Source of the DNA: Planctomycetota bacterium
GTDB lineage: Bacteria > Planctomycetota > MHYJ01 > JACQXL01
Assembly (NCBI GenBank): GCA_038059695.1
Contig: JBBTIZ010000004.1
Location: forward strand, 1 to 62,661
Direction of reading: 5' to 3'
DNA length: 62,661 nucleotides
In this document: positions 7,575 through 7,649 of the stretch, one piece after another
How the letters are laid out: every line of letters begins with the position of its first letter
Position numbering within the stretch: position 1 is the first letter of the stretch
The notes under the pieces: model-generated
Databases searched by the model: none
The model's input: the letters and a program-made list of their open reading frames with translations, nothing else
Told to the model about the DNA's origin: nothing
Translations under genes and position numbers: made by a program

Positions 7575-7649
7575 CTACACCACATATCCAATCACGTAGG
7601 GATTGAATGTAACGTTTACTACTCCATACGCATCTGTAAAAGCGTATTG
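7575..7649 (-). pseudogene. Orphan 3' end of a fibre-like gene (QYAFTDAYGVVNVTFNPYVIGYVV*)
   Basis: 19 of 24 residues identical to the C-terminus of the 51199-52146 protein, ends in TAG; truncated upstream at 7650. Confidence 0.85.

Follow-up and report, generated by a model that had tools for sequence, protein, structure and literature searches.

Orphan fibre-gene 3′ ends and C-terminal tip replacement in a multi-copy fibre family of groundwater planctomycetes

The exchange of C-terminal ends behind a conserved N-terminal part is known from several bacterial gene families. At rhs loci, a displaced fragment retains part of the core along with its whole tip, so that re-attachment is possible (Jackson et al. 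2009, PMC2935791); for the T6SS effector genes of Vibrio cholerae, homology-facilitated illegitimate recombination has been proposed as the route of sequential displacement (Kirchberger et al. 2017, PMC5361080). Among surface fibres, the MAT fibres of Bdellovibrio bacteriovorus are described, in the portion of that account drawn on here, as having a trimeric beta-prism shaft, a conserved N-terminus and varied tips, many of the fibres carrying an S74 chaperone-protease; one pair with 75% identical fibre regions has an exchanged C-terminus (Caulton et al. 2024, PMC10769870).

The window analysed here, a stretch of 62,661 nucleotides, is contig C4 of a metagenome-assembled genome (G000, 55% complete) from an uncultivated groundwater planctomycete lineage. 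It carries the orphan 3′ end of a B-type fibre gene, hereafter the B relic, downstream of an A-type fibre gene (fibre A) and on the same contig as an intact B-type gene (fibre B). The census of related loci comprises three genomes of one genus, namely G000, G001 and G002, the latter two more than 90% complete, and contigs from groundwater of one aquifer, the Hainich.

The B relic and its surroundings

The reverse complement of the B relic interval (CAATAC...GTGTAG) translates to QYAFTDAYGVVNVTFNPYVIGYVV followed by a stop. An initial annotation made from the letters alone had matched this peptide to the end of fibre B at 19 of 24 residues with many silent changes, and this was reproduced: compared with the terminal 24 codons of fibre B, 19 of the 24 residues and 52 of the 75 bases agree, and the 23 base differences comprise 13 in synonymous codons and 10 in five changed codons. 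The tblastn match to the end of fibre B has an E value of 9e-9 in the window and 1e-8 in the genome, with the stop codon in register, and chance similarity was rejected on these grounds. All residues that are invariant in the alignment of B tails are retained in the relic except N110, a position also occupied by V in the G001 gene L051. The relic has no usable start codon, and its homology is placed from about 7651 because an in-frame TGA lies two codons 5′ of its Q (reading PN-stop-IQYAF). In a structure model of the B tip, the relic corresponds to the last two beta-strands only. Gene order at the locus is unchanged in four independent assemblies of replicate groundwater samples (L189-L192), and the structure is therefore not an assembly artefact. 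The B relic is confirmed as a genuine leftover end of a fibre gene, and it is probably a non-functional scar.

The relic and fibre A lie on one strand, with 2843 bases measured from the last base of fibre A to the relic, in agreement with the roughly 2.8 kb given earlier. The accompanying statement that the relic is cut off at a repeat associated with a REP-associated tyrosine transposase (RAYT) fits loosely, as the RAYT 5′ fragment lies 90 bases off. The intervening sequence is composed of several distinct pieces (Table 1). Immediately downstream of fibre A and its linker is a second orphan tail, of A type, in which all six base differences from fibre A's own tail are synonymous; this tail starts 0 nt past the 3′ foot of the second hairpin, and the 60 nt upstream fold with a dG of -15.7. 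A two-gene cassette encoding a 157-aa protein and an HTH-like protein follows. The 157-aa gene, encoding an identical protein, and the HTH gene also occur between lon and a lipoprotein gene in L193, and a 79-89% identical copy of the pair, encoding a 152-aa protein and an HTH protein, is present at locus L184; neither G001 nor G002 has the 157-aa gene. To judge from these placements, the pair is mobile in its own right.

A nucleotidyltransferase cassette is nested in the 3′ end of the HTH gene, between two direct repeats of 74 nt (7948-8021 and 9374-9447) that are 95% identical. In the lower of the two copies the HTH gene's original 3′ end survives, now displaced, and copy 2 retains the L184-like tail KKKPKKKKND. 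The 3′ end of the HTH-like 110-aa gene has thus also been duplicated and displaced by a two-gene cassette, so orphan 3′ ends are not specific to fibre genes in this genome. The 92-nt flank beyond the relic overlaps the last 11 codons of a convergent 116-aa ORF that is complete in the window (6964-7314, plus strand); at L184:18037-18128 (equivalent to L124:402-493), in the flank of the sister module, only the last ~11 codons of that gene are present, a further case of an orphan 3′ end. Searches with PADLOC and NCBIfam gave no match for the genes between fibre A and the B relic, and no Rfam family or tRNA was found in 6600-12700.

The initial annotation proposed that cargo genes accumulate between a new gene and the old tail. 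In that form the proposal is not supported: the pieces at the present locus (the 157-aa/HTH pair, the nucleotidyltransferase cassette and the RAYT fragment) are separately mobile, and most other relics have no cargo.

Two repeat families were observed elsewhere in the window. A 62-nt REP-like double-hairpin element has copies at 6875-6936, 41241-41302 and 52912-52973 and many more in the genome, one copy sitting in frame within ORF 52516-53241. At 44218-44481, tandem 44-nt units rich in ATACCCTAT and C/G runs lie just upstream of a methyltransferase-like ORF (44803-47346).

Table 1. Coordinates of features around the B relic, the comparison gene and further orphan tails of the same genome (window positions unless a contig is named).
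Feature	Position	Strand	Remarks
Conserved 3′ flank of the putative former B-type gene	7283-7374	-	88% identical to L184 18037-18128
Orphan B-type fibre 3′ end (B relic)	7575-7649	-	24 codons (7578-7649) and TAG stop (7575-7577)
Sequence abutting the relic's 5′ edge	7663-7800	+	25-nt motif, promoter-like element and RAYT 5′ fragment
25-nt motif	7663-7687		second copy at C11:9856-9880
Promoter-like TTGACA-17-TAATAT	7690-7718
RAYT, first ~20 codons	7741-7800	+	15/20 residues identical to C11:11979-12038
Nested nucleotidyltransferase cassette	7948-9447	-	116-aa gene (8720-9070) and NTP_transf_8 gene (8050-8739)
Two-gene cassette	9365-10256	-	157-aa gene (9783-10256) and 110-aa HTH-like gene (9365-9697)
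Second orphan tail, A-type	10411-10446	-	11 codons ELVIYILGYIM (10414-10446) and TAA
Two-hairpin linker hp1-TCTAA-hp2-TAAGA	10447-10491	-	between fibre A stop and A-type relic
Fibre A, 394 aa	10492-11676	-	residues 3-166 of L184-like shaft lineage
Partner gene of module A, 266 aa	11814-12614	-	no known family
Fibre B, 315 aa	51199-52146	+	intact B-type gene, comparison reference
B relic, 32 codons	C23 81624-81719
B relic, 32 codons	C42 11979-12074
5-codon relic			behind A-type gene C19:9282-10133

Tips, shafts and orphan tails across the fibre family

The half-complete genome G000 encodes 13 fibre genes and 14 genes related to a 265-aa partner protein; across genomes the modules are dispersed, with 13 to 25 or more copies per genome, and the fibres (280-450 aa) are always encoded behind the 265-aa partner gene. 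The shaft repeats match phage tail-fibre families such as PHROG 892 (E = 4e-46 for fibre A and 1e-37 for fibre B). Pfam gave no match for fibres or partners, S74 included, and PHROG gave none for partners. The tip comprises the last ~125 residues and occurs as five types, A to E, all ending in [IVL]G[YW] and two further residues. None of the tips matches a known family. The B tip is modelled as a beta-sandwich (pLDDT 74) with no match to solved structures in the PDB at E < 1e-3, and a fold search gave weak jelly-roll-like matches only (TM 0.3-0.4, E > 2e-3). Related contigs come from Hainich aquifer groundwater, and a scan of genome contigs with the B-tip alignment, using patterns in the front part of the tip, returned loci of G002 and G015 only. 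Viral contigs were scanned three times with the partner protein and the two tail types, and nothing was found. A phage or episome origin was rejected on the basis of these empty scans. The surroundings of both modules in the window are chromosomal genes or restriction-modification and defence islands, not phage tail modules.

Tip type does not follow shaft ancestry, and a different tip predominates in each genome. In different species, shafts with 90-100% identity across the first 130-190 residues bear different tips, as in C4-B (B tip) against G002 L081 (D), C19:41065 (B) against G001 L074 (A), C23:38367 (B) against L068 (A) and C40 (A) against L086 (C). On a tree built from the first 90 residues of 43 fibres, the number of tip-type changes is 23, compared with a mean of 21.5 for shuffled labels (range 17-26); tip type in the same set is tied to genome (chi-square p = 5e-8), with B dominant in G000 (8/11), A in G001 (11/15) and C in G002 (14/17). 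The initial annotation had suggested comparing shaft and tip phylogenies, and the tip type proves fully incongruent with shaft ancestry. Its further proposal of swapping at the KLAPGVGG junction is not supported as it stands, as the left breakpoints have no single position: they occur at various points of the distal shaft between the AKIAANAVGSSE repeats and KLAPGVGG, with that of fibre A near residues 125-166.

Orphan ends recur in this multi-copy family, recording frequent tip swapping, and the expectation that other loci would carry such ends was borne out by many examples. At least 15 orphan fibre 3′ ends of 5-85 codons, every one reaching its stop codon, were identified in the three same-genus genomes and the Hainich contigs. 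Five belong to the genome of the window: the B relic, the 11-codon A-type relic and those on C23, C42 and C19. Five were found in G001, three of them isolated B tails of 23-40 codons and two of them A tails directly behind A-type genes; in the 14-15 kb around each isolated tail (~5-9 kb per side), no fibre or partner match was found. At least two, both B-type and of 85 and 43 codons, occur in G002, and the Hainich contigs add four more, L158 among them. All represent the terminal 5-85 codons of the ~125-codon tip and fall short of the KLAPGVGG junction. The relics have the orientation of the gene upstream (window 7578-7649 and 10414-10446, C23, C42, C19, L069, L079, L122 and L131), and a search of the window's own genome with all shafts and partners detected no orphan 5′ or internal fragment. 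Most of the changes that set relics apart from living tails are synonymous (between the C23 and C42 relics, 19 of 26 lie in synonymous codons), which traces the relics to diverged alleles once under coding selection. Tandem duplication followed by drift was rejected because the differences are mostly synonymous and mosaic and because the C23 and C42 relics differ behind a shared block.

Three further arrangements bear on the family. Despite its three isolated B tails, G001 has only one, divergent, B-type gene. The pseudogene L158:3340-3605 joins a C-type tip of ~45 aa in frame, at a shared IVP motif, to a 32-codon B tail that carries TAA where Q is expected, so that this relic is either stacked or chimeric. 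In G002:C61 (L088 5614-8598), two complete fibre genes, B-type and then D-type, stand in tandem, an arrangement that may represent the state preceding decay of the second gene.

Where a relic lies next to a gene, the block upstream of it is made up of that gene with its stop codon and a 3′ element of its own. Three kinds of element occur: a two-hairpin linker (hp1-TCTAA-hp2-TCTAAGAA), also found between partner and fibre genes; a ~70-nt element ending in TTGCTTCGCAAAGGG; or a REP hairpin. In 8/8 adjacent junctions the relic starts 0-3 nt past the 3′ foot of the last hairpin; as one junction is common to C23 and C42, the independent cases number seven. Folding of the 60 nt before each adjacent junction gives dG values of -10 to -18; the same hairpin criterion holds at 4.9% of random genome positions. 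Left breakpoints fall in conserved shaft repeats; at the right joins, donor end and resident sequence overlap by 1-2 nt as judged by inspection. C23 and C42 have in common a near-identical block of ~200 nt, made up of the last ~43 codons, the stop, a 72-nt element and GGGGTGCC; the relics behind it are ~73% identical (26 differences in 96 nt) and their flanks are unrelated. This shared junction would be best explained if gene plus spacer had later spread by homologous recombination and the right crossover had fallen where relic and tail are homologous. At the B relic itself, the 5′ edge adjoins the RAYT fragment and the hairpin is weak (dG -2.8), so this junction is secondary and the mechanism cannot be read at this locus.

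Origin of the B relic and alternative readings

The closest relative of module A is found on a 161-kb Hainich contig that holds the loci L121, L124 and L184; a 656-nt stretch shared with the end of C44 is 100% identical, and the contig is therefore from the same population, probably the same genome. The L184 partner is 63% identical to partner A, compared with 38% or less for the other 12 partners of the genome that match partner A, and residues 2-165 of the L184 fibre are 75% identical to residues 3-166 of fibre A. The L184 tip is of B type, and its tail is the top nucleotide match of the B relic among ~60 B tails (79.7%; 20/24 residues). The 92-nt flank lies ~190-280 nt past the stop of the L184 gene and equally far past the stop of the relic in the window. 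The window thus has sequence of the L184 module lineage on both sides of the A-type segment, in order and orientation, and only the interior of an L184-type gene, from about residue 166 to 24 codons short of the end, has been lost. The simplest reading of this arrangement is that the predecessor of fibre A was B-tipped and was overwritten. The initial annotation held that the locus once bore a B-type tip, and this is very probably so, since L184 unites the partner and shaft lineage of module A with a B tip, B tail and flank.

The L184 locus also contains, at 9169-9400 and just 5′ of genes encoding 78-aa, 152-aa and HTH proteins, three tandem ~104-nt repeats, each with the palindrome GCACAAGNACTTGTGC; these are iteron- or operator-like and hint at an episome origin of the block.

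On this basis, the B relic is probably the end of a B-tipped predecessor of fibre A that was overwritten from about residue 166 by an A-type segment. Direct support comes from the homology of the relic, the family-wide pattern, the sister comparison, the incongruence of tips and shafts and the hairpin rule; the route would be as follows. The predecessor gene would have had the partner and proximal shaft of module A with a B-type tip, as L184 has intact today, and the incoming segment, corresponding to fibre A downstream of ~11180-11305, would have consisted of A-type distal shaft, tip and its own 3′ hairpin linker. The left join may have formed by homology in the conserved shaft repeats and the right join illegitimately, which would account for the survival of the extreme end of the resident gene, by homology-facilitated illegitimate recombination or by repair of a break copied from a paralogue. 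That donor blocks end 0-3 bases past a strong hairpin suggests that the invading or copied 3′ end stopped at, or was trimmed to, the hairpin. A later replacement of A by A could have left the 11-codon A-type relic behind, and mobile cassettes (the 157-aa/HTH pair, the nucleotidyltransferase pair and the RAYT element) would then have shifted the old tail 2.8 kb away. Throughout the family, tips spread among the paralogous loci of a genome, probably in this manner, with displaced tails marking the events. The lack of 5′ fragments may reflect selection against expressed truncated shafts able to poison trimers.

Several observations count against this account. Besides the secondary 5′ edge of the relic, the identical junction of C23 and C42 with different relics calls for either a site preference or spread via homologous recombination in the relic, and the 152-aa/HTH pair upstream of the module in L184 could indicate that a second module has been lost. 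The glgC-adjacent site is a hotspot: in G001 it is occupied by a module of another partner and shaft class whose tip is of A type and which lacks a B relic, and in G002 the site is empty. The history in situ therefore rests on the sister module L184 and not on an orthologue, as the glgC-site orthologues lack the state before replacement. A frameshifted A-type fibre (ORFs of 149 and 184 aa) accompanied by a 21-codon A relic and a HicAB pair was observed at this site in G001 (C16:125840-126889; L079 5841-6890).

The lost-module possibility can be framed as a separate explanation, which we regard as unlikely: the B relic would be the remnant of a second module 3′ of module A, ordered as in L184, from which ~6.8 kb were deleted in connection with the RAYT and nucleotidyltransferase insertions. 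The gene order at L184 is 152-aa, HTH, 332, 70, 230, HicBA, trypsin-like, 130, partner, fibre and flank, and the window series of 157-aa/HTH, B tail and 92-nt flank is colinear with it at similar divergence (79-89%), the interval between HTH gene and relic being visibly rearranged. The occurrence of the 157-aa/HTH pair alone in L193 makes this colinearity weak evidence, however, and such a module must have vanished without a trace, as 7650-7947 contains no partner or shaft match. It would also be a coincidence that module A is the sole close relative of the L184 module. The explanation was accordingly down-weighted, the partner, shaft, tail and flank of L184 fitting module A and the relic.

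The hairpin linkers lead to a bolder and quite unlikely extension of the overwriting account, that the linkers behind every module gene are boundaries of a dedicated cassette-exchange system by which a tip sweeps through paralogues, leaving tails as footprints. The donor end would then be set a few bases past the hairpin by a structure-specific enzyme (e.g. a RAYT/HUH-type protein of this genome) or by hairpin-arrested repair synthesis. If true, this would constitute programmed, reverse-transcriptase-free retargeting of a whole surface-fibre repertoire, in which one tip could sweep dozens of fibre genes and become the species-specific dominant tip.

Retention of the tails for a function, as landing pads or right homology arms for the spread of gene plus spacer, or as episome attachment sites, is very unlikely. 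The ~200-nt block shared by C23 and C42, with its ~73% identical relics and unrelated flanks, is as expected for a right crossover in the relic or tail, the relics keep invariant residues, and the excess of isolated B tails over B genes in G001 also agrees with a function. Against this, relics vary from 5 to 85 codons without a conserved core, 70-80% identity over at most 100 nt makes a poor substrate for homologous recombination, no recombinase is linked, the viral-contig scans described above were empty, and the L184 block has no tail relic on its upstream side. As a separate candidate, the integration of a circle resembling L184 within the fibre gene by a Campbell-type event was rejected: it predicted a B tail 5′ of the 157-aa gene or a tail copy 5′ of the L184 block, and neither is seen.

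Passive import of the relic with foreign DNA such as a RAYT-bearing element, which would make it uninformative about the locus, is highly improbable. RAYT-associated sequence does adjoin the relic, and the relic is missing from the orthologous locus of G001, but the RAYT fragment points away from the relic, and the native fibre-type 3′ flank after the relic matches that of L184 and runs into the resident convergent gene.

A near-copy of the 3′ end of a receptor-binding tip downstream of the gene resembles the VR/TR pair of a diversity-generating retroelement, but such an origin, or cDNA-mediated conversion, is hardly credible and was rejected, as the mismatches are of all substitution types and not confined to adenine and no RVT_1 reverse transcriptase was found in G000, G001 or G002, control genomes scoring in the same search. 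Inversion systems of the Mu Gin/P1 Cin shufflon type have inverted alternative 3′ ends, flanking inverted repeats and an invertase nearby; the relics here are co-oriented, and no inverted repeat pair brackets them.

Comparison with known displacement systems

If the overwriting account is correct, the B relic is inert but dates and locates one tip replacement. Together, the relics show a lineage in which dozens of fibre genes have had their tips replaced again and again and made alike within each genome. This pattern is the signature expected for a surface-recognition system under changing selection, and the breakpoints of the scars are precise enough for the mechanism, with one-sided homology and a donor end at a hairpin, to be tested. 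In annotating these genomes, a short intergenic match to a fibre end is better read as a scar than as a gene.

Several described systems resemble parts of this picture. Phage tail fibres of PHROG 892 share the shaft repeats; there are no phage genes near the modules, and the tips match no family. The MAT fibres of Bdellovibrio (PMC10769870) are alike in architecture only, in that they too form a large chromosomal family of phage-like proteins whose proximal part is conserved and whose C-terminal tips are exchanged. At 280-450 aa the planctomycete fibres are much shorter, and a partner gene, orphan tails and hairpin linkers do not appear in the portion of that account drawn on here.

In rhs C-terminal displacement (Jackson et al. 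2009, PMC2935791) and in the orphan arrays of mafB and CDI loci, a conserved N-terminal part is likewise combined with exchangeable tips, the incumbent tip, once displaced, remains further downstream in the same orientation, tips pass from locus to locus, and genes may intervene between the new gene and the old end. Unlike the rhs fragments, the fibre relics consist of the last 5-85 codons only and lack the junction, and unlike rhs and CDI loci the fibre loci have no toxin domain, immunity gene or low-GC trough, their products being adhesin-like fibres and not toxins. The initial annotation's likening of the locus to orphan modules in polymorphic toxin loci is therefore a loose one: displaced ends do lie downstream, but the junction, most of the tip and an immunity partner are missing, and the relics are for that reason not re-usable.

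For the T6SS effector genes of V. cholerae (PMC5361080) the mechanism proposed is the one suggested here, an upstream homologous anchor combined with an illegitimate downstream join, by which old 3′ material would shift downstream and arrays build up; Vibrio retains a functional immunity gene under selection, whereas what is left of the fibre genes is non-coding debris, and a hairpin marks the donor end. The closest analogue of the process proposed here is C-terminal displacement in rhs and T6SS loci, an idea that the planctomycete scars extend from toxins to adhesin-like fibres.
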